Shown piece by piece: positions 40,122 to 59,628 of a stretch of DNA of 64,000 bases. The notes beneath the pieces were generated by a model. The model saw nothing but the letters and a program-made list of their open reading frames with translations, was not told where the DNA came from and did no database searches. The position numbers and the translations under genes are program-made. Source of the stretch: an uncultured Methanosarcinales archaeon (GTDB taxonomy: Archaea; Nanobdellota; Nanobdellia; Woesearchaeales; CAIVOO01); contig CAZAIK010000001.1 in assembly GCA_964485195.1 (NCBI GenBank), forward strand, positions 124,001 through 188,000. Reading direction: 5' to 3'. Each line of letters starts with the position of its first letter. The first letter of the stretch is position 1.

Positions 40122-43100
40122 TTACTCCAGCAGATAGTTTATTATCTCAAGGTCAGAGGGATGGTAAGGGTTGATTTTGTCTGGGGTGAACACAGGCTGC
40201 AGAGGCAGTTTCACAAGCTTCTTCGCTATTACCCCCTCTAGTTCGCAGTTGCTCTCTATAGCTGACTGGAGAATTGCAGTGTTCTCCCCATAAGGAACTG
40301 TGTCTTCTTTTCCGTCTTGGCAAGAGATTATTCCGTCAAAGTTTATCACAGCTTCCTCATCCAGGGGCTGCCCTGCAATGTCCAGTTGAGGAATTTTCCA
40401 TTCAATAGTTAACTCTTCAGGAGTTTCCCCAGGCACTCTTGTTATTTCAACATATCCCGGGGGAACGTCATCGTAGCTTTGTCCTCTGGGTGTCTCAAGG
40501 ATGTTAACGCTTTCCAAGTCCCTGTTGTTCACAGCTGTTATCCCATAATAAATTTCCGCCCCTTCCGCAAGGCTGTCAATATAATAATATCTATTGGTGT
40601 CAGACTCATAAACCAGCATTCCTTCCCTGGGTCTTATATTTTGCGTGGCCACAGCTCCTTCAGTTTCCTCCACCTGGGCTTCCAGCTCAAAAACGCACTG
40701 CTTGAATCCTGTTGGAGAGCATTCCGGTACCAGGGTTATGGACTTCACTGCCATCTCATTTTGCGCATTTATGAATTCAGGATTGGCAGTTTCCTTAACA
40801 TCCTCTGATTTCTGGTTTGGAAAGCTGGTGTCCTGCTTGTACACATTGTATCCCACAACATTCCTTGCAGGGCTCCTGAACCAGCTTATTACCGTCAAGT
40901 CCCTGGCTCTAATGAGACTTTGGGATTCCACCCCCCTGACATCAGGAGGGGGGACATTGGGAGGCAGGAACGCAAATCTTATGGTGAGAGGCACTTCCTC
41001 AAATCTTTCCAGAGTCGGGTTTCTTGTTTCTATCTTGAGATTGTCATCCTTGCTCACAGCGCAGACCTTTATCATCTGGCTCTCGGCCTGGTGCTCAGGA
41101 AGGCCTGCCATAGGCTCCTGTGAAAAGGAGATTATGCCTGAGTTTTTGTTCATAACAATCCTGGACAAAGGACCTATCCTCTCATCCTGATAAACTAATT
41201 TTATTCCTCCTTCATTTATTATCTGCGAAGGAAATTCAACAACGTTCTCCATGGTAAAAAGAGAAAAGACATTCTCATCCCCTGTCAAGGACATATCATA
41301 TCTCTCTTCCGACACCTGCGTGAATGTTATGCTGTTTCCGGATTCCAAGGCATAATCGGGGTCAAAATCCTCCATCACGCAATAACCATTCTCGCCTGCC
41401 TGCAGGCAGGTATCATAAAACTCTGCAAAGTCGCTGAAAAACGCCTCGTCCGCATTCTCGCAATATGTTTCCCAGCCTATCTTTCCCCCAGAAGAGGGCG
41501 TTTCCTCCTCAAAATAATACTCCCTGTTCTGCTTGAAGAAATAGTGAAAGTCCTCATCTTCAGCTGTTTGCAGGGCAAAGCAGTCAATAGTCTGGGTCTC
41601 GCCGCACTGCTCCTCATCCTCAATCATATTTTTCATTCTGTCCTGCACTTTCCTGTAAGGCTCAAGCGAATAGTCCAAGACTGTGGAGAAAGAACCTGCT
41701 ATCAGGTAAGTTGCGAAAAGGATTTCGTCCTTTGCAGATGTTCCTGCATAATTTATCAAGGTTCCCGGAAGGCAGGGCTGAAGCTGCCTGCTTGCGTATG
41801 AAGTTTGCGTTCTGGGAACAACCGCAACAAAATTTGCAACCTTTCTCCCATCCCCGTCTGTCAGCTGCCTCTCACCTGCCCAGTTGTAATAATGCATTGT
41901 TGAGCCTCCCCCGTCAAGATTAACAACCTTCTCACAATTTTCATTGGCTTTAAGATAATCTTTTAGTTCATCTACATTTGCGCTGGTGGCAGTCACTAAT
42001 TTCACCTTATAATCAGGAGTTACGCAAACCTGGGTTCTGGGTCTTATGTCCGAAGCACTTTTAGCGCCGGCAACTGCGGAAGTAATTGAAGGGTTATCAA
42101 CTGCCATCTGCTTGAAATCCTTTTCAGAAAGTATCCTGGGAAGGTTATTTTCCACAAAAAAATACTCCTCAGCGAAATCGTGCGGGCCTTTTACCAGTTC
42201 GCCGTCTTCCACAAACCAGCCTAAAATCTTGCCCTGTTTGACCCACTCCTCACCCCCTTCTTCCCTGGCCCCGAAAAAGGCGCCGTTTACTCCGGCAACA
42301 AAATCAAGTCCGGGATATCTTTCAACTGCTGTCTTGAGATTGATAAGGCAGTAGCTACAGGTTCCTCCACCTATGTCCTCAATTATTGTCTTGGCAGACA
42401 ATGTTTTAATATCAAAATACTGGGGATCTGCCTCTATTATTCTTGTTCTTCCAAAGATGTTCAGCTCTTTGAGATTCAGTGCCGACTGGGGTATGCTTTC
42501 AGGGGCTCCGCTTTTTTCAAAGTCAAATTCAGGCTCTTTTTCCAGCTGGTCAAACCTTATGGCAAGGTGGCCTTCCTCAAACTCTTTGTTTTCGCCTGCC
42601 CTTGAAGCTGCCTCAGGCCACTGGCAGAGCTTTTTTGAAAAGGCATTTTTCCAGGAATTGGTTCCGTATTCAAAAACAGCTCCGTTGTTGTGAATATTAA
42701 CCCAGCCTGCCTGGCAAGCCAGTTTTATCCTCTTCTCGTAAGGAGCGCACAGGCTGGTGTCTATTGTTATGGAATCCCCTGATGCTGAGACAGAAACTAT
42801 TTTCAGCTGGCAGTTGTTTGCCCTGAAAACGCTGTTTAAGGAGTATAACGCGTCAGAGACAGGTTTTTTGAATTCGCATTTCCCCGCGCAGACAGTTTCC
42901 CCGTTTATTTCCTTGAGGGTCACCATAGGCTCGGCTTCAACATTCACATTGAGAGGCCCGCCTCCGAAAAAAGAGCCCGGCTGGCAGTTCTGGAACTGTA
43001 TTCCCGGTCCCGGTGCGGTTCTTTGATAATCTGCCACATATTTTTTTTTCAGTGCTTCAATTCTTGCCACAGACTCATCTATTCTTGACTCAGTAATAAT

Positions 43101-45335
43101 CCCCTTATTCACAGCTTCTTCTATGCCATCAATAAGTGTTTTAATGTTCGCCTCTGTTTGGGTATCTGATTTTTTATAATTAACAATCAAAAGTATGTCA
43201 ATCCCCGCTTCAACAGCGTCAACTGCGAGTTTCTTGTGGTCTTCCCTGTATTTAGGGCTGTCCCAGATGGAAACAGCCCCCAAATCATCGCTTATTACCA
43301 CACCATTGAAATTCTGCCTTGCCATCTGCACTATTGACGGGGAAACAACTGCTTGGTTTTCAGAATCTGTATTTTGATAGACAATATTAGACATCATTAT
43401 CGCGTCTGTATGCGGCTTGAGCGAATTAAAAACCTGCAGCTCTGCCTGGTCTAATGACAGCACTGCAACGCGCTCCTCATCGCTGTTCCTGGATTCGTCA
43501 CCATAACCCGGGAAATGCTTTATTGTGGCTGCAACATTATTCTGGTGAAGCCCCTTGATATATGCCCTTGACTTTTGCTTCACCACAGAAGGGTCTCCGC
43601 TGAAGGAACGGTCTATCTTTACCATCAAGGCATCTGGATCAGAAGCGACATCAACAACAGGAGCAAGGTCCATATTAATGCCCAAATCTTTCATTACTTT
43701 GCTCGCCTCAGACATCTTTTGGATTATCTGCTGTGCATTCCCCATATCTCTCGGGGCACCGGGATTGTAAATATGGGATATCCTGTTTATCCTGCCTCCT
43801 TCTATATCGCTTGAAACAAGCAAGGGGATGCTTGCCTTTGACTGGTAGCTTGATATCCTGCTGGTAATTTCCTGCACAGATGCTCTTCCCCCCGCACCCT
43901 GTGAATGGGGCACGGTCCCTGTCCCTTCATTGTCCTTCATTAATATTACTCCTCCCACCTGGTATTTCTCCACAAACTCCCCATTAGGGCCTGGGGTTGA
44001 CATTATCATCTGTGCAATCTTTTTCCTCAAGGGCAGGGAAGCCAGACTGACCTGCTGGAAAAGGTTTATTCCATTGCATCCAAAAACATCCCCAGTCTCA
44101 ACAACATTGCCGCAGACAGTAAGGGAATCTGCACTGACCTCAACTGTTGCAAAGATATGTTTGTTCTTGAGGTTTCTTTCATACTCAGTGTCCCCTCTTG
44201 GGTATCTTATGTTATTTGAGGAAACTGTGCCAGCAACTACCTGAAGTATCTTCCCCGAAGAAAAAGTTTTTTTGACATAGCAGTGCTGGTGCCCTGAAAA
44301 AACAGCCTTTATATGGGGATTTGCCTCAATTACTCCTTTCAGCCCATTAAGCCTGTCGTGTTTGTGCAATCCGCAGTCAATGCTGATGGCAGGCAGATGG
44401 GAAAGGATAATCGTGGGCTTGTCCTGATTCCCTGACAAGTCCTTTTCCAGCCAGTTTGAAAGGCTTCTGGACAGGGAAACGCCAGTGTAATCCAAAGCAA
44501 CAAAGTGATATCCTTCATAGTCAAAAGAGTAATATTCCGGCCAGTTGGAATCGTCAACAAAGTTGATATCAGCGGGTTTTTTGTCATTCCAGAACTGCTC
44601 ATATTCTCCCGGAGCATCGTTAAGGTCGTGGTTTCCCTTTACAGGGAGAATTGGAACTTTGGAAAGTTTTTCATAATCTTCAAACTTAAACTGGTCCTCC
44701 AGGGTGAAATCGCCAGCGTGGACTATGAAATCAGGATTTGTGTTAAGTATAGTGTCTGGGTTCTTAATGGGTGTTGTGTGGGTGTCGCTTATGACTGCAA
44801 AACTGAAATCCTGGGCTGAGGCAAAGCTGGCTGACAAGACTGCAATGAAGATGAAAACAGCGATTTTGGCAGGAATTTTCCTTTTTTTCCTGTGTCTTAT
44901 GAATAAAATTACCAAAATGAGTATTAATGCAACCATTATAAGAGCAAGTACAAGTATCCTGCTGCTTTCTTCCTCCTCTCCAATTAAATCTGAAAATGCC
45001 TCTTCAAGTAAGTTCCCCCCTTCCGCTTCAAATTCTTCCGGCCCTGTATAATACTGGTCTGCCCTGAATTCAGCCTCGTCCTTGCCATACTGTTCAGACA
45101 GCCTTTCAACAGCTTCCTCCTTGGAGAGGGTTATGCAGGTTCCGTTGCAGCAGTTCTCCCCTGCATAGTCCGAGGTGTTCCACATTGAAATTCCCACGCA
45201 CTCCTGGAATTCGTTGCACACATCCTTCCCACCCATATTCACGCAGGAATAATCCCAGTCTGCCTGCGCAGAAACATTTAAGGTTAAAAGCAAGATAAAA
45301 GCTGCAACTATTCCTGTTAATGAAATTTTCTTCAT
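40122..45335 (-). CDS. 1737-aa exported mosaic: metallophosphoesterase, GH3 (NagZ-like), eroded M15-like, phosphodiester glycosidase (NAGPA/DUF2233), C-terminal beta-rich domains
   Basis: DTH/HAGD/GNHD/GHQH; DIEGG/LAPVVD/KHFPGYG/ISDDL; VNGAFF/RPRT/NLDGGGST. Confidence 0.85.
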   Translation of the reverse strand: MKKISLTGIVAAFILLLTLNVSAQADWDYSCVNMGGKDVCNEFQECVGISMWNTSDYAGENCCNGTCITLSKEEAVERLSEQYGKDEAEFRADQYYTGPEEFEAEGGNLLEEAFSDLIGEEEESSRILVLALIMVALILILVILFIRHRKKRKIPAKIAVFIFIAVLSASFASAQDFSFAVISDTHTTPIKNPDTILNTNPDFIVHAGDFTLEDQFKFEDYEKLSKVPILPVKGNHDLNDAPGEYEQFWNDKKPADINFVDDSNWPEYYSFDYEGYHFVALDYTGVSLSRSLSNWLEKDLSGNQDKPTIILSHLPAISIDCGLHKHDRLNGLKGVIEANPHIKAVFSGHQHCYVKKTFSSGKILQVVAGTVSSNNIRYPRGDTEYERNLKNKHIFATVEVSADSLTVCGNVVETGDVFGCNGINLFQQVSLASLPLRKKIAQMIMSTPGPNGEFVEKYQVGGVILMKDNEGTGTVPHSQGAGGRASVQEITSRISSYQSKASIPLLVSSDIEGGRINRISHIYNPGAPRDMGNAQQIIQKMSEASKVMKDLGINMDLAPVVDVASDPDALMVKIDRSFSGDPSVVKQKSRAYIKGLHQNNVAATIKHFPGYGDESRNSDEERVAVLSLDQAELQVFNSLKPHTDAIMMSNIVYQNTDSENQAVVSPSIVQMARQNFNGVVISDDLGAVSIWDSPKYREDHKKLAVDAVEAGIDILLIVNYKKSDTQTEANIKTLIDGIEEAVNKGIITESRIDESVARIEALKKKYVADYQRTAPGPGIQFQNCQPGSFFGGGPLNVNVEAEPMVTLKEINGETVCAGKCEFKKPVSDALYSLNSVFRANNCQLKIVSVSASGDSITIDTSLCAPYEKRIKLACQAGWVNIHNNGAVFEYGTNSWKNAFSKKLCQWPEAASRAGENKEFEEGHLAIRFDQLEKEPEFDFEKSGAPESIPQSALNLKELNIFGRTRIIEADPQYFDIKTLSAKTIIEDIGGGTCSYCLINLKTAVERYPGLDFVAGVNGAFFGAREEGGEEWVKQGKILGWFVEDGELVKGPHDFAEEYFFVENNLPRILSEKDFKQMAVDNPSITSAVAGAKSASDIRPRTQVCVTPDYKVKLVTATSANVDELKDYLKANENCEKVVNLDGGGSTMHYYNWAGERQLTDGDGRKVANFVAVVPRTQTSYASRQLQPCLPGTLINYAGTSAKDEILFATYLIAGSFSTVLDYSLEPYRKVQDRMKNMIEDEEQCGETQTIDCFALQTAEDEDFHYFFKQNREYYFEEETPSSGGKIGWETYCENADEAFFSDFAEFYDTCLQAGENGYCVMEDFDPDYALESGNSITFTQVSEERYDMSLTGDENVFSLFTMENVVEFPSQIINEGGIKLVYQDERIGPLSRIVMNKNSGIISFSQEPMAGLPEHQAESQMIKVCAVSKDDNLKIETRNPTLERFEEVPLTIRFAFLPPNVPPPDVRGVESQSLIRARDLTVISWFRSPARNVVGYNVYKQDTSFPNQKSEDVKETANPEFINAQNEMAVKSITLVPECSPTGFKQCVFELEAQVEETEGAVATQNIRPREGMLVYESDTNRYYYIDSLAEGAEIYYGITAVNNRDLESVNILETPRGQSYDDVPPGYVEITRVPGETPEELTIEWKIPQLDIAGQPLDEEAVINFDGIISCQDGKEDTVPYGENTAILQSAIESNCELEGVIAKKLVKLPLQPVFTPDKINPYHPSDLEIINYLLE

Positions 45336-46534
45336 GATGTTATTCCTCTCAGCTGGTTTTCTGCCTCTGCCTGGAAATTGAGTATGGCTGGAACATAGCC
45401 CCTGATTTCCTTTGCCTTGGATCCGCTCATACCAACGCTTCTTGTTAACCCCGGGGTTATGTGGGCTGATACAGTTTCCCAGGAAGGGTCCTGTTCCCCT
45501 GTCCTCTTGATAGCTCTTCTGATAGTGTCAGGCCCTCCGTTGTAAGCTGCCAGCCCGAATTTTACCTTGTCAGTATAGCCATCAAATCGTGAAGTGTAAT
45601 CATAAAGGAGCTGGCAACCTGCGCGGATTGATTTCTCAGGGTCAAACCTGCCGTCATTGGCAGCATTGCAGGCTGCAGTTCCGTAAGTGCAGCTGCTTCC
45701 TGAACAGCTGCAGGGAGTGATATCCCCAAGGATATGAGAATATTCCCTTGCTGTTCCAAGGCAAAACTGGTTCAGGCCTGCACAGCCCGTCCAGGATATG
45801 GCAAATTTCTTTCCCCTGGACTCCTGGGTTATTAGCCCCACCATAAGGGAATCCTGCACTCCCAGGGGCGCGCAGTAATTTGAGACAAGATGACCGTATG
45901 TGTTTATGATAAAACTTATTGCTTCCTTGTTGGACTTGCCTACTGGGCCTGCAGGATAAGAGGCAGGAGGCAACGTGTAAGTGGTATAGCCTGTTTCTAT
46001 ATCATACTTTTTCATATCAAAGCTCAGGGGAACTATTGCATCTCCTGACACTATTGTTTTTTCTCTGCCTTCTTCCTCAAAGATGTTTATTTTGTAATTG
46101 TTGAACTGGGTGACGGGGCTTTCGGGAATCCTGAAAAAGTTGTCAATCTCTTCATTCATCTTGATTTCAAAAAGGTCTTTCACTGGTTTTCTGTTTTCAG
46201 AGACAGGAATGCACTCTTCCTCATCAAAGTCCCATATCATAAAATTGTAATGATTTCCGCAGGGGGAGTCAAAGGGCAGGCCGCCTTCATAAGCTGTCAG
46301 GAAATAGGCGTCCGGAGCTGCATATCCTGCTGCCATATCTATGTAGAACAAGGAGGATTCCGCTTCCTGATATGTCTGCGTTATCAGTTTGGACTTCATC
46401 CCCACATCCCCTTTCCTGGCGCTTTCATCCTGGTTCTTGTTGATGAAATAGAGCATAGCCCCTAAGGAAATTATCAGGAACACGCTTACCAAAGTGATGA
46501 AATATTTTCCTTTCTTGTTTTTGAACAGTTTCAT
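45332..46534 (-). CDS. Pilin-like protein with C-terminal lytic transglycosylase (SLT/GH23) domain
   Basis: KKG-hydrophobic N-terminus; ITQESRG, AGLNQF, LAAYNGG, EIRGYV. Confidence 0.88.
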   Translation of the reverse strand: MKLFKNKKGKYFITLVSVFLIISLGAMLYFINKNQDESARKGDVGMKSKLITQTYQEAESSLFYIDMAAGYAAPDAYFLTAYEGGLPFDSPCGNHYNFMIWDFDEEECIPVSENRKPVKDLFEIKMNEEIDNFFRIPESPVTQFNNYKINIFEEEGREKTIVSGDAIVPLSFDMKKYDIETGYTTYTLPPASYPAGPVGKSNKEAISFIINTYGHLVSNYCAPLGVQDSLMVGLITQESRGKKFAISWTGCAGLNQFCLGTAREYSHILGDITPCSCSGSSCTYGTAACNAANDGRFDPEKSIRAGCQLLYDYTSRFDGYTDKVKFGLAAYNGGPDTIRRAIKRTGEQDPSWETVSAHITPGLTRSVGMSGSKAKEIRGYVPAILNFQAEAENQLRGITS

Positions 46535-47118
46535 TCTAAATACACTTCTGCCTTTACAATATTTTGTTGGCCTGTGGGATATTGCACCTCTGCCATTAAT
46601 GTCTGTCCTGTTGTGCCGCAAATGCCTGTGCCGGGTCCCAGGGGGGACAGGATGGTTTTCTTTTTAATGAACCCCACTACATAAGGGGTTTTGGAACAAT
46701 GTAGGCTTTGCAAAGAAGGGTAAAAGACTGACAAGCAGGCACCTTCGCTGTCAAGCTTTTGTATATATGGCCTTATCTCTTCCATAACTGAATCAAAAAA
46801 TTCCGGCTTTTCAGCAACTGGATACCGGCCTGCCTCCACCTTGCTTATGCACTCGTCTTCATCTGCAACTTTCCCCAGGTATTCAGCGAACATTAATGTC
46901 CTGCCGTCTTCAAGGGTTACCGGGGCTCTAAGAACATTTAACAATTCAAGGCTGTAATCCGCCTTTAACGACTGCACATCCACCTCTGCCTTTGATTTGG
47001 TGTTTGTTGATACTATCAGTATTATGACTATTATGAAGAAAACAAAATATGCGAGCAGGGCGAAAACATCTGTAATGACTGATGTTCCTATTCCCTTTTT
47101 TGATTTTGAAATTTTCAT
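46531..47118 (-). CDS. Class III signal peptide (pilin-like) protein
   Basis: KSKKG|IGTSVITDVFALL. Confidence 0.75.
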   Translation of the reverse strand: MKISKSKKGIGTSVITDVFALLAYFVFFIIVIILIVSTNTKSKAEVDVQSLKADYSLELLNVLRAPVTLEDGRTLMFAEYLGKVADEDECISKVEAGRYPVAEKPEFFDSVMEEIRPYIQKLDSEGACLSVFYPSLQSLHCSKTPYVVGFIKKKTILSPLGPGTGICGTTGQTLMAEVQYPTGQQNIVKAEVYLE

Positions 47119-47636
47119 GTCCTGGGCACCAAGATTTCTGTAAGCAGCATTCCCTGCTCCCTGTTCCCTTCTTCATCCACATACAGCACGTAAGTCCTGT
47201 TGTCTGCCTTGAGCACAGTTCCCCTTCCCAGGAATGTTTCGTGGGAGAGGGGCAGCCAGTCCAGATATCTTTCTCTGTTGTAATATGCCTGCTTAACTAT
47301 GTTATCTTCAAAGTCAAGGAGTGTTATGTTCGCCGCAATCATTTCCTTGCCCCCGCTGAAATTGGCTGCTGACTCCAGTATTTCAGGGTCAAAATTTTGA
47401 AGGTCAACAATTCCAGGGTAAGTCCTGCCTGTGTAAGGGTCGCTGTATGACAGGGCATTGGGATTGTATAAAAGATAGTCCTTGAAAACACTTGCTTCTA
47501 TGTCTGCTGTGTCGCTTTGCTGTGATTCATAAATCCTTGCTACGAAATAAATCGAGACCAGCATCATTACTACAAAGAGTATCCTGGCAATCCAGTAAAT
47601 CATGTCATAAGCTCCCATTGCTTTTTTTGATTTCAT
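47115..47636 (-). CDS. Class III signal peptide (pilin-like) protein
   Basis: KSKKA|MGAYDMIYWIARILF. Confidence 0.78.
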   Translation of the reverse strand: MKSKKAMGAYDMIYWIARILFVVMMLVSIYFVARIYESQQSDTADIEASVFKDYLLYNPNALSYSDPYTGRTYPGIVDLQNFDPEILESAANFSGGKEMIAANITLLDFEDNIVKQAYYNRERYLDWLPLSHETFLGRGTVLKADNRTYVLYVDEEGNREQGMLLTEILVPRT

Positions 47637-48581: not shown

Positions 48582-49424
48582 CTAATTGTCGGCTTCGCTA
48601 CAGGTTTGCTTGTCATCTCCCAACGCTTTCCAAACACAAGTTATACCTTTTGCAGACAACCCGCAAGGGTCGGATTTACACTGGGAAGCTGCCTTGTCTA
48701 TGTGGCTGTGTTCGTAAGGTATTCCAACACTATCACTATATTCCCAATCACCCATAGGCTCTTTGATTCTCCTCTGCCTGTGATATGCATATCTTTCACA
48801 GCTCATATCCCCCACAAGCACGTTAGAGCAGGGCTTGCACTGGAATGATTCTCTTTTTGCTCCACCAATTGTTGCAGAAGGTTCATCATTTGTAAGCATT
48901 ACAAAGCACTCGTCTCCTGCCATGCAGTCCTGGAAATTGTCAAAGTTGCATTTCCCTGCATATTCCCCTGAAACCTGTATGCCTTCATCAGTTCCTTCAA
49001 CCTCCAAAATGACAACGTCATTAGCTCCTGTTGGTGAAAATTCCCCCTGTAAATCTACTGAACTCCTGAAGCATCTTTCTTTGTAAATTTTTGAAAGGCA
49101 GCCAAAAGGCTGTATTAAGGAGGAAGGACTTCCCTGCTTGCAAAGGCAGATGCAGTTTTCCACGCAGTTGCTATCAAACTTGTTCGTTGTTATCTTGAAC
49201 CCGCTCCTTATGTCCACAGGAACATAAACAGGAGCGCCCCACTCATCCACGTTTCCCATTGCATTTTCCAGCCTTTCAAAGCCCTGGATGGTTGAATAAT
49301 CAGGCCTGGGGATTATAATCCTGTAGCCTGCTGAAAGCAAAGGCATGACAACATAGATTATAACAATGGAGGCTATCACAATCCCTATGATGGTGGACCA
49401 TACAATGCCTTTCTTGCCCTGCAT
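48582..49424 (-). CDS. Pilin-like protein with Cys-rich domains
   Basis: GKKG|IVWSTIIGIVI; CICLC and further Cys. Confidence 0.75.
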   Translation of the reverse strand: MQGKKGIVWSTIIGIVIASIVIIYVVMPLLSAGYRIIIPRPDYSTIQGFERLENAMGNVDEWGAPVYVPVDIRSGFKITTNKFDSNCVENCICLCKQGSPSSLIQPFGCLSKIYKERCFRSSVDLQGEFSPTGANDVVILEVEGTDEGIQVSGEYAGKCNFDNFQDCMAGDECFVMLTNDEPSATIGGAKRESFQCKPCSNVLVGDMSCERYAYHRQRRIKEPMGDWEYSDSVGIPYEHSHIDKAASQCKSDPCGLSAKGITCVWKALGDDKQTCSEADN

Positions 49425-49466
49425 TTTATCCAATATTATTCTTATTTTTAAAAAGATTTGTTAAAA

Positions 49467-49733
49467 TCAAGAATCAGAGACAGGAATGCAGCATTGTTGC
49501 CCTTCTTCACAGCTGAACTTTCCAAGGCTTATCTCATTGCCTGAGCAGGGGGAAACTCCTGGCTGAATCTCAGTTTTGCACTCCCCTCCTCTTGCCTCGC
49601 ACCTTGCAATTCCAGAGGCCTGCTGTGCAGAGCTGGTGGAATACTTCCAGAAAATGAATGCAATTATGGCAAGGGCTATGACCCCTATTACCATCGTGAC
49701 AATCACCCAGTTGACATCAGCTTTTTTCTTCAT
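49467..49733 (-). CDS. Small pilin-like protein with six-Cys C-terminus
   Basis: KKKA|DVNWVIV; CEARGGEC...CC. Confidence 0.82.
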   Translation of the reverse strand: MKKKADVNWVIVTMVIGVIALAIIAFIFWKYSTSSAQQASGIARCEARGGECKTEIQPGVSPCSGNEISLGKFSCEEGQQCCIPVSDS

Positions 49734-49999
49734 CCTTCCTCCCTTTCTATGGGAACACAGCATCCCACTGTTTCAGTCCTTTCATCATTGGGAGCGTAAG
49801 TGAAATAACTGTCAGGGCCGCATTCTGTGCTTGAAGCTGCCTCACCTCCTCCCCTTTCAGAGCAGGTAGGCCCTTCCAGGCTCCTTCCGAAAATGCTGGC
49901 TCTCTGCGTGAAGATGTAAACAAGAACAACAAGCACTATAATCACAAGTATGGCTATAATCATCGTGTTCAATGACAATGAAACACCTTTTTTCCTCAT
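49730..49999 (-). CDS. Small pilin-like protein
   Basis: RKKG|VSLSLNTMII; CSERGG...CC. Confidence 0.85.
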   Translation of the reverse strand: MRKKGVSLSLNTMIIAILVIIVLVVLVYIFTQRASIFGRSLEGPTCSERGGGEAASSTECGPDSYFTYAPNDERTETVGCCVPIEREEG

Positions 50000-50241
50000 T
50001 TAATCACCTCAAGGCAGCATATCTGGCTTCCCTCGCATTCAGCGTCAAAAATCCTTGTCGAGCCCGGAGGGCATTCGCTTTCTTCAGTGCAAAAGCCTCC
50101 CTGTGTTTCGCAGCTGGCTGTTGTCCTCCCGAAAATACCCAGCCTTCCGCTGAAAATCACGACAAGAACAACAAGCACTATGAGGACTATTACAGCCACT
50201 ATTATCACATTCAAAGACAGCTCAGCTCCTTTCTTGTTCAT
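49996..50241 (-). CDS. Small pilin-like protein with six-Cys C-terminus
   Basis: NKKG|AELSLNVIIV; CETQGGFC...CC. Confidence 0.87.
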   Translation of the reverse strand: MNKKGAELSLNVIIVAVIVLIVLVVLVVIFSGRLGIFGRTTASCETQGGFCTEESECPPGSTRIFDAECEGSQICCLEVIK

Positions 50242-50243
50242 TC

Positions 50244-50552
50244 TTACTCTTCTTCAAACGGCGTGAACTTGCAGCAGCAGCACCTTTCAATGCCCCTGCT
50301 GGTGTCTGCGCAGGTAAAGTCATCTCCTATGTTAACCTCCCTATCTCCTGCAAGGCAGTTTGAAGAGCAATACCTGCCAGTGCCGGGAATGTCGCATCTG
50401 CTTGTTGCGAACTGTTCGGCGGTCTCTTCAGTTGACTTAGCAAATATACTGCTTCTCTGTGAGAAGATGATTACCATAACAACAAGAACTATGAGAACTA
50501 TCACTGCTATTATTATCACATTCAAGGACAGAGATACTCCTCTCTTTCTCAT
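50244..50552 (-). CDS. Small pilin-like protein
   Basis: RKRG|VSLSLNVIII; ends ...CCCCK. Confidence 0.85.
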   Translation of the reverse strand: MRKRGVSLSLNVIIIAVIVLIVLVVMVIIFSQRSSIFAKSTEETAEQFATSRCDIPGTGRYCSSNCLAGDREVNIGDDFTCADTSRGIERCCCCKFTPFEEE

Positions 50553-50553
50553 C

Positions 50554-50853
50554 TTACTCTGCGCCTGTGTTGCCTACTGAAATACAGCAATAGCCGTCAT
50601 CGTCCTTATTATTGTACTGGAATTTGCCGTCACCGTTCAGGTCACAGGCTCCCCAGCCAATCCTTTCATAGGTGCCGGTGCACTGGTCCTCTGACTCAAC
50701 GCACCTTCCGCCCTGCACAACGCATTTGTCAGACTCCTTTACAAAAACACCTGTCCTGCCTGTGAAGATTATGGCCAGAATCACGAGAACAAGCAGCCCC
50801 AATGCTGCTATGATGATAACATTCAAAGATATTCCCTGGGCTTTCTTCCTCAT
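50554..50853 (-). CDS. Small pilin-like protein (candidate major pilin)
   Basis: RKKA|QGISLNVIII; GAGGTGA RBS; first gene after its own TATA box. Confidence 0.87.
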   Translation of the reverse strand: MRKKAQGISLNVIIIAALGLLVLVILAIIFTGRTGVFVKESDKCVVQGGRCVESEDQCTGTYERIGWGACDLNGDGKFQYNNKDDDGYCCISVGNTGAE

Positions 50854-50911
50854 CAAATCACCTCTTTTGAGCTTTTAAAAACATTATTTTATGACTCCTT
50901 AATAATGTCTA

Positions 50912-50932: not shown

Positions 50933-52080
50933 TCAAGAAGGTGTTACGCATTCCACAAAAAAGTCTCTGAATAGGTCAGATGTTGAAGGCCTGATAAGGG
51001 TATTGCATCCAGTTCCGCTCACGTTGCAAACATCATTTATGCATTCTGGAAAACGGTAATATGGCTTGCCTAATTGAGGATAATAACCTATCACCTCTTC
51101 ATAGTCTTCGCATTCTTCAATAGATTTGCAATCAATTCCAAAAGTTGAACCTTCCTCCCTGCAAGTCCAATAGTTTCGGTAGTTAATTTTATAGGCAACG
51201 CATTCTCCATTTATTTCGCAAGGATTTTCCAGGCACGCTTCTTTATTCAACCCATAATCAGCACAGGTTGTGGCATCAGCGCAGGATCCGCATTCATCAA
51301 AGCTACTTTCATAACCATACTTCAAATAGCACAGCTGATTTTGGTTGGCAATTGCCTCGCACAACTCTTCATCCGCCCCCTTGCAAATTGCCGGTTTGCA
51401 TTTGAAANNNNNNNNNNNNNNNNNNNNNNNNNNNNNNNNNNNNNNNNNNNNNNNNNNNNNNNNNNNNNNNNNNNNNNNNNNNNNNNNNNNNNNNNNNNNN
51501 NNNNNNNAACGCAATAATTCTTTGTGGTTGCCGACTGGCATTCCAGCTCTTCAAAATCGCAGTCTTTTATCTTGTCTATCCTTTCTATGTACTCCTTGGC
51601 ACGGATTACTGCCTGGAATTCCGCCTTGCCTTCAACCTTGTCAAATTCCTGCCTGGCCTCATCAAGGAATCCGGGATTTGTGCCGTCAAATTCTGCCTGT
51701 TCCCAATTAACTCTTGCTATGCAGAACTGCCCGTTCGCCCTTGCCTCTGCAAGGAGGTTGGTGAACCTGTTGAGCATGTACTCGGCATTCTCAGGCATTT
51801 GCTGTATCTTCATTCCTATGCTATCCTTTGCTCTGCCCGCCCTTGTCCTGCACTCATCTTCTGTGCCTGCTTCAAGGATTGCGTTCACGTCCTTCTGCAA
51901 GTCCTGCAATGCCTTCCATTCCTTTCCGTATTGGTATTTGTTTATGAATTCAAGAAGCCAGTTGGGAGCTGCATCAGGCCCGATATATGTTTCATAGATT
52001 ATTATGCCTCCTATGGCCACCACTATCACTACTATAACTGCTGTGACAACCACGTAGCCAACTGCGCCTTTCTTTTTCAT
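50933..52080 (-). CDS. Pilin-like protein with helical middle and Cys-rich tail, spanning an assembly gap
   Basis: KKKG|AVGYVVV; open Cys-rich frames on both sides of the N-run. Confidence 0.68.
51408..51507. other. Scaffold gap (100 N)
   Basis: Run of N. Confidence 1.
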
Positions 52081-52232
52081 GCTGCCCCTAATGTCAGTAT
52101 TGCCTTTATCCTGTCCCACACGCCTTCAGCCCCTCCGAATAACAAGGCAATCACTACCAGGAGTGCTATTATGAGCAGGAGGAACAGGATCCATTTTCCT
52201 ATCTCGTCCCAGGCGAGGGATGCCCTTTTCAT
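52077..52232 (-). CDS. Minimal Flp-sized pilin-like protein (51 aa, absent from ORF track)
   Basis: Own translation: MKRA|SLAWDEIGKWILFLLLIIALLVVIALLFGGAEGVWDRIKAILTLGAA; ATGA overlap with the next gene. Confidence 0.82.
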   Translation of the reverse strand: MKRASLAWDEIGKWILFLLLIIALLVVIALLFGGAEGVWDRIKAILTLGAA

Positions 52233-52261
52233 TTTTTATGCTAATTTTTGATTGTTTTTAT

Positions 52262-53164
52262 TTATTGCGGTCTTGTGCCCAATGCGATGGGGAAGTTCTC
52301 GCACTCTATCGCCTGCAAGTCCTCAGCTGTGTTGTATCTCGTGAACAGGACCTGGGCTGCCACCCGGGGTTCTTCAGAGTATCTGTTTATGAAAACTCCT
52401 GTTGTGGCTCCTCCTAAAACAGCCCCTCCCGCGCCAATTCCCAAAAGGATTATTCCTGCTGGTATTCCCACTCCTGAGGCCATTAGCATAACTCCTGCAG
52501 CGCCTATCACTGCCCCTCCTCCCACAGCCGCTATCCTTCCTGTTGCCTTTGCCTGCGGTGAACGTCCGCTAATTGCGTTTCCCAATTGATTTAGAGCTGC
52601 ATCCATTCCTGAATACTCTTTCTTGTACCAGAACAGCACAGCGTACCTGTCCTTTGCAGGCATTTCTGAATACCCCAGCCTTGAAATCAGGTTGCTTGAA
52701 AAGCCTGCCCTGGCATTTGCAAAATAGTCCATATAGCTCTGCTCTGAAAGGGCGGAATGCCTTTTCTCTGCAAGGAACTTTTCAAAATTCTCTATCTTTC
52801 CTTCTTTTTGGGTAAAGTCCACTATGGCATAAACTGCGCAGAAAACCCCTGATCCCACTTCAAAAAGCTCGCTTCCCTCCCAGGCAATTGAGTAAATGTC
52901 CCTGACGTCTTTCATAAGGTCAGCAATCCTTCTTTTTGTCCCATCTGCATTTGGGTCAGACTTTAGGGTAACGTTGGTAATGGGGCAGTTGATGCTTGCC
53001 TGCAAGGTCGGTGAGGTTGCGTGTATTTCCACCTGCCTCTTGCATATCTCCTTGTTTGACTCTCCCACCCCAAAGTTTTTCACTTCCTCAAAAAAGACAA
53101 GCAGCAGGATTCCTGCAATTACCAGGATTATGAATCCGAGCAAAAACTTTTGTTTCACGTCCAT
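52262..53164 (-). CDS. Membrane-anchored pilin-associated protein with glycine-zipper-like hairpin
   Basis: N-terminal TM; Cys pattern shared with 53166-53936; AAVGGGAVIGAAGV...GAGGAVLGG. Confidence 0.75.
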   Translation of the reverse strand: MDVKQKFLLGFIILVIAGILLLVFFEEVKNFGVGESNKEICKRQVEIHATSPTLQASINCPITNVTLKSDPNADGTKRRIADLMKDVRDIYSIAWEGSELFEVGSGVFCAVYAIVDFTQKEGKIENFEKFLAEKRHSALSEQSYMDYFANARAGFSSNLISRLGYSEMPAKDRYAVLFWYKKEYSGMDAALNQLGNAISGRSPQAKATGRIAAVGGGAVIGAAGVMLMASGVGIPAGIILLGIGAGGAVLGGATTGVFINRYSEEPRVAAQVLFTRYNTAEDLQAIECENFPIALGTRPQ

Positions 53165-53165
53165 T

Positions 53166-53936
53166 TTAGTTCAGCAATGCCTCGCATCCTATGTGCTCAA
53201 ACTGCTCCTCAGGAACCACAATCACTTGGGGGAACCACCTCTCTTCCAGCACTTCTCTTATTACTTTCGCCACATCCCCTATAATGTTCAATTTTCCTAT
53301 TATCCCTCCCTCCTCAAAAGAGGCCCAGAACACAACATAGTAATCCTTGGAAGGGTCAATTTCGTCAGCGATCCTTATCCTGTCAGGGTCTGAGGCGTCT
53401 ATTATGAAGAAAGCCCTCTTGTTTTCGTAAGTCAAGTGCGTGAAATAGGATTTTGAGGATTCAGGGGGGTTGTTAACAGTAAGCCAGCTGGTCATTCCTC
53501 CCAAGTCCTCCTTGTTAAGCGCCTCATCAATATCGTGAAGGTTTATCCGGGAATAAAGAAGGCAGTGGACATTTCCTTTTGTGAAGATTCTTTGCTGGAA
53601 CGTCCTGTGCTCCCCCTGGGCAGAGACATACCAGGTGTCATACATTGCCTGGGCAAATTCCCTTTTCACAAGGTCAGCAGCCTTTGCTTCGTCTTTAGGC
53701 AGGTCGTCCTTTTCAATGTCTGTGACGCTCATCGGGCAGTCTATCTGGGGCTTCAGGGTTTCAAGAGTTGCTTTCTTGGCGAGCTCCACCTCTGCTATGC
53801 TTAATCTGCAGACCTCCCTGTGCCTTGCCTCTGACAATGTTGCGTTTATCACGTTGTTAAGGCCGAGCATAAGGATAAAGATAACCACCCCTATTATCAT
53901 TGTGAGTAACGATTCCTGCATTGCTTTCTTGTTCAT
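53166..53936 (-). CDS. Class III signal peptide (pilin-like) protein
   Basis: NKKA|MQESLLTMIIG. Confidence 0.78.
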   Translation of the reverse strand: MNKKAMQESLLTMIIGVVIFILMLGLNNVINATLSEARHREVCRLSIAEVELAKKATLETLKPQIDCPMSVTDIEKDDLPKDEAKAADLVKREFAQAMYDTWYVSAQGEHRTFQQRIFTKGNVHCLLYSRINLHDIDEALNKEDLGGMTSWLTVNNPPESSKSYFTHLTYENKRAFFIIDASDPDRIRIADEIDPSKDYYVVFWASFEEGGIIGKLNIIGDVAKVIREVLEERWFPQVIVVPEEQFEHIGCEALLN

Positions 53937-54064
53937 GTTAAAGTCCTGCTAAGCACCTGCCGTATTATAATTATTAATATTATGAGGCCTGCGATGACTA
54001 ACGCAAGTATTATCAGGTTTTTCGCTATGCTTTTCTGCGCCTTCCTTGATTTTTTCAGCTGCAT
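53933..54064 (-). CDS. Minimal pilin-like peptide (43 aa)
   Basis: SRKA|QKSIAKNLIILALVIAGLIILIIII. Confidence 0.7.
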   Translation of the reverse strand: MQLKKSRKAQKSIAKNLIILALVIAGLIILIIIIRQVLSRTLT

Positions 54065-54597
54065 AATCCAAGCTCCACGGTCATTGTTCCAGGGTAAAGG
54101 GGCAGGTAATAAGAGTCTTTCTGTATGTATCTCAAGCCTGTTCCGCCCCCTGTAAGGCATTCCTCTATTGAATCATTAATCTCTATTATTGGCTCGTCGG
54201 GGTTTGTGTAAGCCAGGAACTGATATTTCTTGTTCCAGCTTTTTAATGTTCCATTAAGCATTGCATCTACTGCTATGTCCAGGTATGTGCAGATTATTGT
54301 GTTTGGCAGTATTGTAATGCCCATAAAATCACCCCCGCAGGTTCTGCAGGTGCTTGGGCTGTCCCAGCAGTTGCCGCAGTCTATCAGCAAGGTGCTTATC
54401 TTGTCATTCTGGCAGGTGGATGTTGTGGAGAGCATTGACGCCAGGATGTTTGTTGCCAGCTGCTGCTCTGAAAACTCCCTTTTGGAGGTTGTTTCCCCAG
54501 AGCTCCTTAACGCGTTGCTCACTATGAAAAGTATCCCTATGGATATCAAGATTACAACTATTGCTATTCCAAGCATCTCTGTCTGTGCTTTTTTCAT
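54055..54597 (-). CDS. Class III signal peptide (pilin-like) protein
   Basis: MKKA|QTEMLGIAIVVILI. Confidence 0.85.
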   Translation of the reverse strand: MKKAQTEMLGIAIVVILISIGILFIVSNALRSSGETTSKREFSEQQLATNILASMLSTTSTCQNDKISTLLIDCGNCWDSPSTCRTCGGDFMGITILPNTIICTYLDIAVDAMLNGTLKSWNKKYQFLAYTNPDEPIIEINDSIEECLTGGGTGLRYIQKDSYYLPLYPGTMTVELGLCS

Positions 54598-55085
54598 CTT
54601 GTGTAAACTCTCACGTCAATGTATCCAAAGGAAAACTGGTTGAATATGGGATCCTGTATTGAAACAGGCACCTGCGTTGAAACATAGCCTGTTATGTTCC
54701 CTCCGGGAAAATCATAAATATTGTAGGTTTTTTGCTCAGGGTATATTGAATATACTGTTATGTTGCTGAACCCGAATATGTCAAAATAATAATCTGTCCT
54801 GTTCTCTGCAGGATTGTTCAACAGCAAATCCTGCATTGCCCTGATTTTGTAGATGTCAAAGCAGTTGAACTGTATCACCTCAAGGGTTGAGCACTGGAGC
54901 TCTGAGAGAAAAGTAGCAGTCTGCGAAATTGTTATTGCCCTTGACAATAAATCTGTTTCCTGCTGTTCTCCGAGCTGCACCTGGCTGTATCTTGACCAGA
55001 AGATTATCCCCACTATTACCAGAATGAAGAATATCATAAGCACTGCAACACTCTCTCCAATCTTAATCTGAGATTTTTTTCTCAT
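54594..55085 (-). CDS. Class III signal peptide (pilin-like) protein
   Basis: RKKS|QIKIGESVAVLMIFF. Confidence 0.85.
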   Translation of the reverse strand: MRKKSQIKIGESVAVLMIFFILVIVGIIFWSRYSQVQLGEQQETDLLSRAITISQTATFLSELQCSTLEVIQFNCFDIYKIRAMQDLLLNNPAENRTDYYFDIFGFSNITVYSIYPEQKTYNIYDFPGGNITGYVSTQVPVSIQDPIFNQFSFGYIDVRVYTR

Positions 55086-55086
55086 T

Positions 55087-56124
55087 TTAGTATATTGGGG
55101 CGCAGGATGCCCTTAATGCGTTGTTGTTCCTGCTCATTACTTCACTCTCTGTTAATTGTATTGTGGTTACATCCCTTTCAAGGGCTGCCTCAGCTATTGC
55201 TTCTACCTTCGATGGCGCTCTGGTAATTGGGTCCTTGCATTCATCCAGATAAGAATCCACATATTCCTGGTTAAGGGCAGTTTCTTTCTCTGCATAAACC
55301 TCGCTCACGTAATGCAGCTTTTCAAACGCCTTTGTCACAGAGCAGTTGAACTCATCCTTGTCTGCCGAGAACACTGCACCTATAATCATCGGCTGCTTGT
55401 AGATCTTTATGGGAGCTCCCTTGAGCACCAGCTTTTTCTCCCCTCCAAAATCCTCTTTTTCATAATACTGGACAAACTGCTCATCTTCATTTATGTAAAC
55501 CCCGCTGACAGCGTTGTCAGGCATTTTTTTCAAAAATTCCGGAAGCTCTTTTGTATTGGTTTTAGCGTGAATTTCGCTCAGGAATATCAGCCTTACCCTG
55601 TAATTGTTCTGGTCTGTGAAGCCGGCATCGTTAATGACTGCCACTTCCTTGGTGATGTTGTCCGGCAATGATTCATAAAAATCAACAGCCACTTGAACAT
55701 CCGGCCCTGAGACTATGACATATCTCACATTGGATGTGGTCATGTAAAGGAAATTGGCAATTTTATAAGGAACGTTCCAGTTCTGGCTGTAAACAACAAG
55801 CTGTCTTCCCTGCAAGGTATCTGGGCCGAAGACAACCTTGTCCGGGAACTGCCTGCTCACCCCCAAAGTGGAAATTCGGTTGCATTCAATGTTAAAGGGG
55901 AGATTGGGCATGTCAAAAACCTGGCCTGTCTGCGGGATTGTAAGGGCCCCGCTCATTATGAGGTCAACTTTTGAGAGCAGTTCAAAAGCCAGCTGCTGGT
56001 CCGCGTTCCTCCTCTGCACATTAGATATGTTAATGAAAAAAACAAGGATAAGAGCACCAACTATCAGGACAAATACCCAGTTAAACTGTATCTCTATGGC
56101 CCCTTTTTTCATTGAGAACTTCAT
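55087..56124 (-). CDS. Class III signal peptide (pilin-like) protein
   Basis: MKKG|AIEIQFNWVFVLIVGALIL. Confidence 0.85.
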   Translation of the reverse strand: MKFSMKKGAIEIQFNWVFVLIVGALILVFFINISNVQRRNADQQLAFELLSKVDLIMSGALTIPQTGQVFDMPNLPFNIECNRISTLGVSRQFPDKVVFGPDTLQGRQLVVYSQNWNVPYKIANFLYMTTSNVRYVIVSGPDVQVAVDFYESLPDNITKEVAVINDAGFTDQNNYRVRLIFLSEIHAKTNTKELPEFLKKMPDNAVSGVYINEDEQFVQYYEKEDFGGEKKLVLKGAPIKIYKQPMIIGAVFSADKDEFNCSVTKAFEKLHYVSEVYAEKETALNQEYVDSYLDECKDPITRAPSKVEAIAEAALERDVTTIQLTESEVMSRNNNALRASCAPIY

Positions 56125-56603
56125 TGTATTGTGACTTTTGCTTCATCCCCCAGGCCTTCAATCCTCAGGGTTATTGTTCCCCTGGTAACGTCTGCGCAGG
56201 CAAACCCCTCGTCCAGCTGGAGGTTTTCTATGTAAAACGGGGCTCCCCCCGGCAGGACAAAAACATTTGCCTGAACCCTGTCCTGGACGCTGTCGTATAT
56301 CAGGGGATATTCATTTTCAGGTATGGATGAAGCATCTCCTGTTATTATTAAATCAGGGTCTACCAAACAGAGCTCATCATAGCCTGAAGGCACCAGGAAC
56401 TCTTCTATCCTCACAGTCCCGTAATCCGAGCTGGTGTAGTCAATCATGTCTGAAAGCCCTGTCTGGAACTTGACATAAGACAGTTCCTGCTGTTTTTCGC
56501 CTATGTTCCTGATAGCGCCATAGCCGTAATAAAGCACTAAGATGATTATCAGTGTTGCAATTAAATAAATGAATATCTGTCCTATCTGGGCTTTATTTCT
56601 CAT
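56121..56603 (-). CDS. Class III signal peptide (pilin-like) protein
   Basis: RNKA|QIGQIFIYLIATLII. Confidence 0.85.
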   Translation of the reverse strand: MRNKAQIGQIFIYLIATLIIILVLYYGYGAIRNIGEKQQELSYVKFQTGLSDMIDYTSSDYGTVRIEEFLVPSGYDELCLVDPDLIITGDASSIPENEYPLIYDSVQDRVQANVFVLPGGAPFYIENLQLDEGFACADVTRGTITLRIEGLGDEAKVTIQ

Positions 56604-59600: not shown

Positions 59601-59613
59601 TTATTTTTTTCAT
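56593..59613 (-). CDS. Large surface protein: Ig-like repeats, three ETDVDCGG Cys-rich repeats, TM, Pro/Lys-rich cytoplasmic tail
   Basis: Signal peptide; DxxGN and DTTPP Ig motifs; TM ending YLFYKK. Confidence 0.85.
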   Translation of the reverse strand: MKKIISLSIIILAVLISSIYISHALVEKTSVFPKITIKFSKTSMNAVTLVNVSDIKVNLTDETGRNYPLEFINVPEGGVSDEFELNTTVPLGNGNYTLYVFASDIVGNTINTTQTITVDVPYMDIRFNNPPLSVSPTPVFDFSIETEETSYGCKYDSYPAHYEDATFSFPDITSTVHTIANFNNASANTGFGLLDGKEKPIYIFCIDVPRGRINPKTLKISYDTTPPKILSLEADPEVVTDRVEGKIRSTLRLTSDDKAVCRYSDFNFSRTEDNTEIYTPIQDDFSQMPNYFGSFGDESNESKYVKNPSTTIDLTDNVTDVSRIYKFVFNVACINRATFDVNDYGPKRVSDTREVTISVNLLRPLQINKISPPSFTQNSTLFINITTNRLADCSYVFNETSGNLESDEEQTAHTGSIPGEYPEGTYTLEVSCVGRAATSATREFSVTIDKSPPSSPSIISPNATCSKKMSADFSAVDNQSGIRGYNYSIIGEGVNVTNKFTSSSSATEENLNLSNHTKYYFTAVAVNNAGLSSTEGRGNDIVYDETGVLCDKTPPSVFLRQNTTATRVIVTLVCIDAETSCNNLTYEYQLSDDANCTGNYQSLAYDSEREAFAASVSQEGYFCYRAEDVAGNVRAGAERIKFESSISCSNNIQDGGETDVDCGGETTCVRCDINENCEVDSDCTSNYCFEGICQQASCSDQMKNGHETDVDCGGFLCPKCSVNQSCERNSDCQSGFCAPSTETCQLPSCNDNITNGNETDVDCGGPVCNACARGKFCEVDSDCITNSCFGGKCVQEPLEPGEAGPAPVREEGLGLLGILKVVFLILGALGILGGSGYLFYKKHQPTKPSAPAPGPAGPPARPTAKPEKKELTPEEKIKRMTVQEQLRREREEKEKKRKSLFEAFGAPKKGTEKKPEKLEPPKKPPVKKAAKPAKKLPLKRPAKKAPEKKGVFEKLGKVKKEAEDYFEKLGKLKGETEFEKLERVGRGKKEEEIEKLQKKKKKKNEK
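57240..57675 (-). repeat. Three tandem Cys-rich ETDVDCGG coding repeats (about 50 aa each)
   Basis: CCGCAGTCAACATC recurs near 57325, 57476 and 57627. Confidence 0.85.
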
Positions 59614-59628
59614 GCTTCATCTCATTCC

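Follow-up and report, generated by a model that had tools for sequence, protein, structure and literature searches.

The gene described here encodes a predicted lytic transglycosylase that begins with a leader resembling those of prepilins. It was found in a stretch of 64,000 nucleotides (64 kb, hereafter the window) of the 204,572-base contig CAZAIK010000001.1, deriving from an uncultured archaeon. The gene and its product are both called P0001. The reading frame is located on the minus strand, opens with an ATG at 46534, ends with a stop codon at 45332 and encodes a protein of 400 amino acids (aa). A basic leader, a hydrophobic helix, an N-terminal domain (N-domain) and a lytic transglycosylase domain of the SLT family follow each other along the protein (Table 1). 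An earlier reading of this DNA, made from the sequence only, had reported a KKG-hydrophobic leader, SLT motifs with an intact catalytic Glu and a Cys-rich insertion, and all three features have been recovered. The leader MKLFKNKKG precedes the 21-residue hydrophobic stretch YFITLVSVFLIISLGAMLYFI; the motifs QES, GLNQ and AYNGG are all present in P0001 and Glu238 is invariant in the family; the insertion CSCSGSSCTYGTAAC occupies residues 275-289.

The mechanical list of open reading frames (ORFs) extended the gene to a TTG at 46621, for a product of 429 aa. This start was rejected in favour of the ATG at 46534, because the three closest homologs (P0002-P0004, 403-417 aa, 48-53% identical to P0001) begin at most 3 residues from it, and because this ATG overlaps the stop codon of the upstream gene in an ATGA.

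P0001 is the last gene of a run of 17 minus-strand genes found at 45.3-56.6 kb. The products of 16 of the 17 start with a [KR][KR][G/A/S] motif followed by a hydrophobic helix. When the ORFs of the window were filtered for overlaps, the leader motif was found in 14 of the 15 minus-strand ORFs located at 45.3-56.7 kb, versus 3 of the 54 ORFs located elsewhere. Two further leader-bearing small paralogs of the run had been removed by the overlap filter, on account of an antisense ORF. Among the small genes are five tandem Cys-rich paralogs, which are candidate major filament subunits (major pilins); their leaders are of the RKKG, NKKG or KRG type, as in RKKG-VSLSLN. A longer, probably spurious antisense ORF (49972-50580, plus strand) masks two of the five when ORFs are listed. 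Of the seven further genes of the run, six bear the leader, and the product of 52262-53164 lacks the small residue after the basic ones; several of the seven have homologs in two of the related loci described below (L004 and L005). A scaffold gap of 100 N (51408-51507) breaks the coding region 50933-52119, which includes gene 51322-52119, and leaves the run with one or two incomplete genes. Directly upstream of the run lie two genes for giant surface proteins, one of 1006 aa, the other running off the window after more than 1431 aa, both with immunoglobulin-like (Ig-like) repeats of the Big_13 or OmpL47-like type. These are possible adhesins, whose membership in the same system we infer.

Table 1. 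Location of P0001, of its parts and of the adjoining genes in the window
Feature	Coordinates	Strand	Basis
SLT-family gene P0001, 400 aa: leader, N-domain and lytic transglycosylase domain	45332..46534	-	ORF translation, Pfam
P0001 leader, residues 1-9, MKLFKNKKG; basic, ends in K-K-G, class III-like	46508..46534	-	
P0001 hydrophobic helix, residues 11-31 (membrane anchor or pilin-type alpha1-N), within modelled helix 7-41	46442..46504	-	
P0001 N-domain, residues 42-200: two helices (46-82 and 116-134) and beta strands; surface predicted to dock	45935..46411	-	
P0001 lytic transglycosylase domain, residues 202-399 (Pfam SLT match 225-349)	45338..45931	-	
P0001 catalytic Glu238 codon (QES), invariant in 40/40 aligned sequences	45821..45823	-	
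P0001 Cys-rich insertion, residues 275-289, between GLNQ and AYNGG motifs	45668..45712	-	
Coupled gene, 1737 aa; ATG overlaps the P0001 stop (ATGA)	40122..45335	-	
Gene Y, 195 aa, leader KKG; orthologs by position immediately precede the SLT gene in related loci; predicted contact with N-domain	46531..47118	-	
Gene X, 173 aa, KKA leader; predicted contact with N-domain	47115..47636	-	
KKG-leader gene, 303 aa	47633-48544	-	
KKG-leader gene, 283 aa, Cys-rich	48582-49433	-	
Five tandem Cys-rich paralogs, 81-102 aa: 49467-49763, 49730-49999, 49996-50241, 50244-50552, 50554-50856	49467..50856	-	
Seven further genes of the run: 51322-52119, 52262-53164, 53166-53936, 54055-54597, 54594-55085, 55087-56124, 56121-56603	51322..56603	-	
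Giant Ig-like (Big_13) surface proteins, directly upstream of the run: 56593-59613; 59629 to window end	56593..63999	-	

Relatives of P0001 are numerous. Among 1.84 billion representative proteins, 3856 matched a profile of the family at E<=1e-3; of these, 561 stay within E<=1e-10 and 98 within E<=1e-30. Among the top matches, many align from residue 1 to about residue 385 of P0001, and then extend for hundreds of residues. Related loci have been sought in 185,579 species genomes, one genome per species, with patterns derived from a 12-sequence alignment; patterns from a 4-sequence alignment were too specific, and their 261 matches included no relative. The motif TGC[ACV]GLxQFC was confirmed in 35 loci, 10 archaeal and 25 bacterial. 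By title, the archaeal loci belong to Woesearchaeota (5), Nanobdellati (1) and 'Methanosarcinales' (4).

In six of the ten archaeal loci (L001-L006) the SLT-family gene comes directly after small leader genes. The contig carrying L002 begins just upstream of the SLT gene, and shows one partial leader gene only. In L001, L003 and L005 the second gene upstream of SLT is a homolog of gene X, and in L002 such a homolog is present as a partial ORF at the contig edge; homologs of four other members of the run occur in L004 and L005. A gene for an RPA-type protein comes next after the SLT gene in L002 and L005, and the same order is found in the window, apart from the inserted 1737-aa gene. The run of leader genes is present in records titled 'Methanosarcinales' as in the Woesearchaeota and Nanobdellati loci. 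Four records (L003, L004, L006 and L022) are titled 'uncultured Methanosarcinales archaeon' though their SLT family is that of the Woesearchaeota and Nanobdellati loci, and this automatic label looks doubtful.

The catalytic domain and the coupled gene

Residues 225-349 of P0001 match the Pfam family SLT (PF01464) with E=4.5e-16 and 58.9 bits, over a cut-off of 21.3. In an alignment of 40 family sequences, residues E238, S239, G253, R296, Y331, N332, G334 and W352 are invariant, and the two cysteines C275 and C289, which delimit the Cys-rich insertion, are conserved in at least 90%. A phmmer search of the PDB with P0001 alone gave no match at E<=0.01. A profile built from P0001 and its three close homologs, run against solved structures, found MltC and Slt70, with QES aligned to the corresponding residues of both. 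The AlphaFold model of P0001 has a mean predicted local distance difference test (pLDDT) of 86.4 and a predicted template modelling score of 0.59. Compared with the PDB, it gave 55 fold matches at E<=1e-3, and those listed are the lytic transglycosylases MltF, MltE, Slt, MltC and MltD. As judged from profiles and model, P0001 carries an intact family-1 (GH23/SLT) lytic transglycosylase domain, with a lysozyme-like alpha-helical fold and a predicted activity of the same kind, which in this family is the non-hydrolytic cleavage of MurNAc-GlcNAc to 1,6-anhydroMurNAc.

Fold and catalytic motifs are those of the bacterial family-1 enzymes (MltF, MltE, Slt70/Slt, MltC, MltD), but sequence identity in the fold alignments is only 15-22%. 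P0001 differs from these enzymes also for the Cys-rich insertion found between the motifs, for the archaeal host and for the N-terminal module. The lipoprotein or periplasmic context in which the bacterial enzymes operate has no counterpart in P0001.

The gene translationally coupled to P0001 on the downstream side encodes a multi-enzyme protein. Its 1737 aa include a Metallophos domain (178-353), a NagZ-like GH3 domain (436-760), a NAGPA phosphodiester glycosidase domain (1013-1172) and a C-terminal module (C-module, about 1207-1650). The first 175 residues have an uncommon organization: a Sec-type signal (...NVSAQA/DW) is followed by a Cys-rich segment, a hydrophobic helix, the basic tract RHRKKRK and one more hydrophobic segment, which is signal-like and has ASAQ/DF at its end. 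This N-terminus may be either an unusual hairpin-type anchor or the trace of an older gene fusion.

The GH3 domain matches Pfam Glyco_hydro_3 at 9.7e-52. Its best sequence matches in the PDB are beta-N-acetylglucosaminidases, namely 6k5j (7.3e-27), Bacillus subtilis YbbD/NagZ (1.6e-23) and LpqI (1.3e-22). The match to the NCBIfam NagZ profile has E=5.3e-30 and 104.7 bits, which is below the cut-off of 207. NagZ enzymes take N-acetylglucosamine off the anhydro-muropeptides made by lytic transglycosylases, and the pairing of an SLT gene with a NagZ-like gene is functionally coherent since the second enzyme would act on the products of the first.

The C-module, corresponding to the last 450 residues or so, is homologous to C-terminal extensions of long SLT-family proteins (P0012, E=1e-15; P0018, E=1e-7). 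By this homology, P0001 and the 1737-aa gene would represent the split form of one family architecture, in which additional enzymes are placed on a second gene. A sequencing frameshift was considered as the cause of the split, and rejected: the large protein possesses a start codon and a signal peptide of its own, and P0002-P0004 are no less short than P0001.

The leader and the predicted docking domain

The leader has been surveyed in 153 stored family proteins. An N-terminal hydrophobic segment preceded by K or R was found in 126. In 89 of the 126 the last K/R is followed by G (46), A (35) or S (8), versus a background of 0.225 for the three residues together; another 18 are of the KKGKY or RRGKV type, where a later K is picked by the rule. 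Phe is found three residues further on in 53 of the 126. A stricter leader rule matches 88 of the 153 proteins. On these counts the [KR][KR][G/A]-hydrophobic leader is a conserved feature of the SLT family. Its regularity exceeds what a simple signal anchor would require, and resembles that of a class III (prepilin-type) site.

Class III signal peptides are found on proteins other than pilins. In the accessible text of PMC13705601 they are described for the substrate-binding proteins of the bindosome of Sulfolobales, and extended to thousands of binding proteins. Bindosome proteins and P0001 share one layout, in which a basic leader and then a hydrophobic helix precede a functional extracellular domain, and the same portion of that paper proposes a type IV filament base functionalised by such domains. 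The cargo differs, as it is a solute-binding protein encoded beside ATP-binding cassette transporters in the former, a glycan-cleaving enzyme encoded in a pilin-like run in the latter, where processing of the leader is presumed. The terms 'enzym', 'transglycosylase' and 'peptidoglycan' do not occur in the accessible text of PMC13705601.

A second term of comparison is provided by the complexes of minor pilins that form the tip or initiate the filament in bacterial type IV pili and type II secretion, such as GspI-J-K and PilV-W-X. As in the window, small leader-bearing proteins and a larger one are encoded together, and contacts between different subunits are made through the helix just past the membrane segment, a feature that in the window proteins is predicted by modelling. 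This comparison is by analogy; GspI-J-K and PilV-W-X have neither sequence nor fold similarity to the window proteins.

The region separating the hydrophobic helix from the SLT domain had been taken for a spacer. This description has to be abandoned, as residues 42-200 make up a conserved domain that, modelled on its own, folds with a pLDDT of 85.2; in it G45 is invariant and C92 and C108 are conserved in at least 90% of the 40 aligned family sequences. The closest neighbours in the ESM Atlas are unnamed clusters from Nanobdellota and Woesearchaeota (0.85-0.88 for the N-domain, 0.91 for one of the small paralogs), which serve as leads only.

The N-domain (residues 42-205) has been modelled together with Y (40-195) and X (35-173), which are encoded by the two nearest upstream neighbours, after removal of the membrane helices. 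A poor ORF of locus L006 carrying X residues was excluded from the final alignment. The three-chain model obtained a median score of 0.61 (0.74, 0.61 and 0.61 in the single runs), versus 0.00 for the best of three controls. In the calibration set, 116 of 157 solved complexes reach the mark of 0.61, versus 2 of 215 mismatched pairs. At least 78% of the contacts agree between runs, and partner pLDDT is at least 52. The predicted interface is formed by the helix just past the membrane segment in all three chains and by the C-terminal strand of Y, with contact regions at residues 59-71 of P0001 and 177-187 of Y. The model supports the docking of the N-domain onto the products of the two upstream genes, without proving it.

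The principal alternative is that the leader is an uncleaved signal anchor (N-in, C-out), and P0001 a membrane-anchored ectoenzyme. Along with the GH3 protein, it would digest free murein debris for amino sugars and peptides; no filament would be formed, and the neighbouring genes would encode other surface proteins. Such an arrangement is rather unlikely, yet several results speak for it or weigh against a pilin-type assembly. Curated pilin and class III profiles gave no match to P0001 and 13 neighbours (Pfam at E<=10, NCBIfam at E<=0.1). The single pilin hint among the neighbours is PilV TIGR02523, matching the product of 54055-54597 with E=0.0088, below the cut-off. A FlaFind-like pattern matches 18 of the 153 family proteins and fails on P0001, which has Lys at +1. 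Comparison of the N-domain model with the PDB and with BFVD (predicted viral structures) gave no fold match at E<=1e-3, pilin-like or other; a pilin fold is by this result neither shown nor excluded. No pilus ATPase, platform protein or prepilin peptidase, the core genes of type IV filaments, was found among the 62 ORFs of the window scanned with Pfam. In four of the ten archaeal loci (L007, L020, L022 and L034) the SLT domain is part of large proteins having other N-termini and other genomic contexts. The complex score has to be read with the reservation that the job differed from the calibration set, since it involved three chains with custom, shallow alignments (4 and 5 rows for two of them) and partner pLDDT values of 52-55. 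A basic N-terminus is to be expected from the positive-inside rule alone, and the activity of the coupled NagZ-like enzyme is of the recycling type. According to the part of PMC13705601 that is accessible, DPANN archaea seldom have their type IV filament genes in ordered loci.

Against the plain anchor stand the details of the leader and of its distribution. An anchor needs neither the small residue after the basic pair nor the Phe three positions on. The same leader is found on 16 of 17 consecutive genes, the gene order is kept in six loci, and the complex model favours docking of the N-domain to X and Y. The 'pilin-type N-terminus' of the sequence-only reading stands as far as the leader is concerned, which is conserved both in the family and in the run; it finds no counterpart in curated profiles, FlaFind-like pattern, fold matches or, within the window, motor genes.

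Relatives, host and probable target

Of the 25 bacterial loci, 17 are labelled Bradymonadales, Myxococcota or Deltaproteobacteria, and Bradymonadales and Myxococcota are groups known as bacterial predators. The SLT membrane proteins of these bacteria have the motif TGC[ACV]GLxQFC in common with the DPANN family. They are 316-533 aa long, with the SLT domain at the C-terminus and mostly a hydrophobic segment within the first 60 residues, but lack the KK[G/A] leader. In a tree of 36 SLT domains, archaeal and bacterial rows are found on opposite sides of one branch, with a support of 96 in the Shimodaira-Hasegawa-like approximate likelihood ratio test; the tree is unrooted, was sampled through one motif, and includes long branches that were flagged. 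The phylogeny separates archaeal from bacterial rows; neither a direction of transfer nor a donor is drawn from it.

The archaeal origin of the window is confirmed by RadA, by the A and B subunits of topoisomerase VI, by the RPA-type protein and by other markers, among which KH-domain proteins, all recognized by Pfam. RadA, RadB and ribosomal protein S2 are 65%, 59% and 55% identical, respectively, to the proteins of the locus of a Nanobdellati metagenome-assembled genome (MAG), and RPA is 50% identical to the protein found in a Candidatus Woesearchaeota MAG locus. By these similarities, the window belongs to a DPANN archaeon of the Woesearchaeota kind. Some other features of the window were noted outside the SLT locus. 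A NifU-like gene (1121-2863, plus strand) is split by an intein including a LAGLIDADG homing endonuclease domain. A gene for a MazF/PemK-like toxin (16581-16916, plus strand) directly follows radA, and has two small ORFs of unknown function downstream. A tRNA was identified by Rfam at 29822-29938 (minus strand), where 117 bases correspond to a model of 71 positions, an excess that points to an intron. ARAGORN, by contrast, reported no tRNA anywhere in the 64 kb.

The nature of the target is suggested by the long members of the family. Family proteins of at least 560 aa number 110, and the first 52 by identifier have been scanned for domains. The SLT domain was found in 51, and 21 of the 52 carry additional murein-specific domains between the N-domain and the SLT domain: Peptidase_M23 in 15, Amidase_2 in 8, Peptidase_M15_4 in 3, VanY in 1, and Amidase_3 with YkuD and Polysacc_deac_1 in 1. 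One also has a GDSL lipase. Chitin and pseudomurein are disfavoured as main substrates, because the M23, amidase and D-Ala-D-Ala peptidase domains of the relatives cut bonds of murein. The sequence-only reading had proposed a foreign target, and foreign, that is bacterial, murein is still the best reading, backed by these domains and by the coupled NagZ-like gene.

Other glycans have been considered, namely chitin, the wall of an archaeal host (pseudomurein or a different polymer), and the envelope of the cell itself during assembly of the apparatus. Some GH23 enzymes act on chitin, and bacterial secretion and pilus systems use dedicated transglycosylases on their own wall. We know of no DPANN archaeon experimentally shown to live on a bacterium, which counts against a bacterial target. 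The known DPANN hosts are archaea, as reported in the portion of PMC8204110 available. Even so, targets of this kind are improbable. The relatives fuse SLT to domains of MurNAc-L-Ala amidases, M23 endopeptidases and D-Ala-D-Ala peptidases, all directed to bonds of murein, and the partner enzyme is NagZ-like. As to the envelope of the cell itself, families involved in murein synthesis were not found among the Pfam-scanned ORFs of the window, and a literature search returned no paper assigning peptidoglycan synthesis to Woesearchaeota. Slightly less probable still is that the domain serves mainly as an adhesin, which would hold the archaeon to bacteria by binding murein and catalyse little or nothing: attachment is named as one role in the accessible text of PMC8204110 and giant Ig-like proteins adjoin the run, but the catalytic Glu-Ser pair and the SLT motifs are invariant in 40 sequences, and catalytic partner domains are common in the family.

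A proposed wall-cutting surface apparatus

On balance, we lean towards regarding P0001 as a murein-cutting SLT enzyme with a class III-like leader, which takes part as a subunit in a surface apparatus resembling type IV filaments. P0001 would be exported and held at the surface by the basic-hydrophobic leader, probably as a class III substrate cleaved by a prepilin peptidase. Hydrophobic helix and N-domain would assemble with X and Y, perhaps also with other products of the run, into a structure of the type IV filament kind. The N-domain would be the docking module, binding X and Y in the style of minor-pilin or tip complexes. The SLT domain would be presented to the wall of a bacterium, and cut its glycan strands rather than the envelope of the archaeon. 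The 1737-aa protein, with its GH3, NAGPA and phosphoesterase domains, would trim the anhydro-muropeptides released, and possibly phosphodiester links of wall polymers. Such a system may serve for getting through the wall of a bacterial host or prey, or else for scavenging amino sugars.

A bolder proposal, which is put forward tentatively and may well go too far, is that of an enzyme-armed pilus. According to it, the 17-gene run would encode a DPANN-specific organelle of the type IV filament kind, the terminal subunit of which, docked on two minor-pilin-like partners, would degrade murein and drill into bacterial hosts or prey. In relatives, the terminal subunit would correspond to a whole cassette, made of amidase, M23 endopeptidase and transglycosylase.

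Part of this picture is already known. Castelle 2021 described fam00969, a family of murein-like lytic transglycosylase proteins of up to 3000 aa, extracellular, found in Woesearchaeota and Pacearchaeota; binding or degrading of the bacterial wall was proposed there, with attachment as one role, and earlier sightings were credited to Rinke 2013 and Castelle 2015 (accessible part of PMC8204110). GH23 genes were found by Vigneron 2022 in five Woesearchaeota MAGs, and given a 'vampiristic' reading (PMC9723730, in the portion at hand). SLT genes of this sort are reported from three MAGs in the available text of PMC10936187. Other archaeal peptidoglycan hydrolases kill bacteria, according to Strock 2025, where the Woesearchaeota case is cited (PMC12352652, accessible part). 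Both the presence of the enzyme in DPANN archaea and the inference of a bacterial murein target are in print.

P0001 shares with fam00969 and with the GH23 genes, as presented in the accessible parts of PMC8204110 and PMC9723730, the SLT/GH23 domain and the occurrence in DPANN archaea, and most of the archaeal loci recovered here are labelled Woesearchaeota or Nanobdellati. The proteins described in those parts are large, whereas P0001 is a split form of just 400 aa, and the multi-enzyme protein is encoded by a second, coupled gene; P0001 and fam00969 have been compared by description, not by sequence. The terms 'pili' and 'pilin' do not occur in the accessible texts of PMC8204110 and PMC9723730, which mention neither class III leader nor pilin-like cluster nor docking N-domain. 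Nothing relevant to a link between pilin-type leaders and SLT enzymes was found in the literature searches made; supplements of PMC8204110 and PMC13705601 could bear on novelty. What appears new, and was not found in print, is the family-wide leader, the fixed place at the end of the run, the docking complex predicted by modelling, and the putative split form coupled to a NagZ-like gene.

The idea that DPANN archaea such as Woesearchaeota and Pacearchaeota may live on bacteria has so far rested on the presence of SLT genes alone. The locus gives this idea a testable mechanism, consisting of a leader motif, a fixed position of the enzyme in a conserved run, a predicted three-protein interface with named residues, and a coupled set of enzymes (NagZ-like, NAGPA and phosphoesterase) suited to what a lytic transglycosylase releases. 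If the leader were a plain anchor, the finding would shrink to another member of a published family. If the subunit reading holds, the idea of functionalised type IV filaments would be extended from binding proteins to enzymes. An enzyme-armed pilus, if true, would be the first case of a pilin-like subunit with catalytic activity in an archaeon, and would offer a molecular handle on cross-domain parasitism between DPANN archaea and bacteria.

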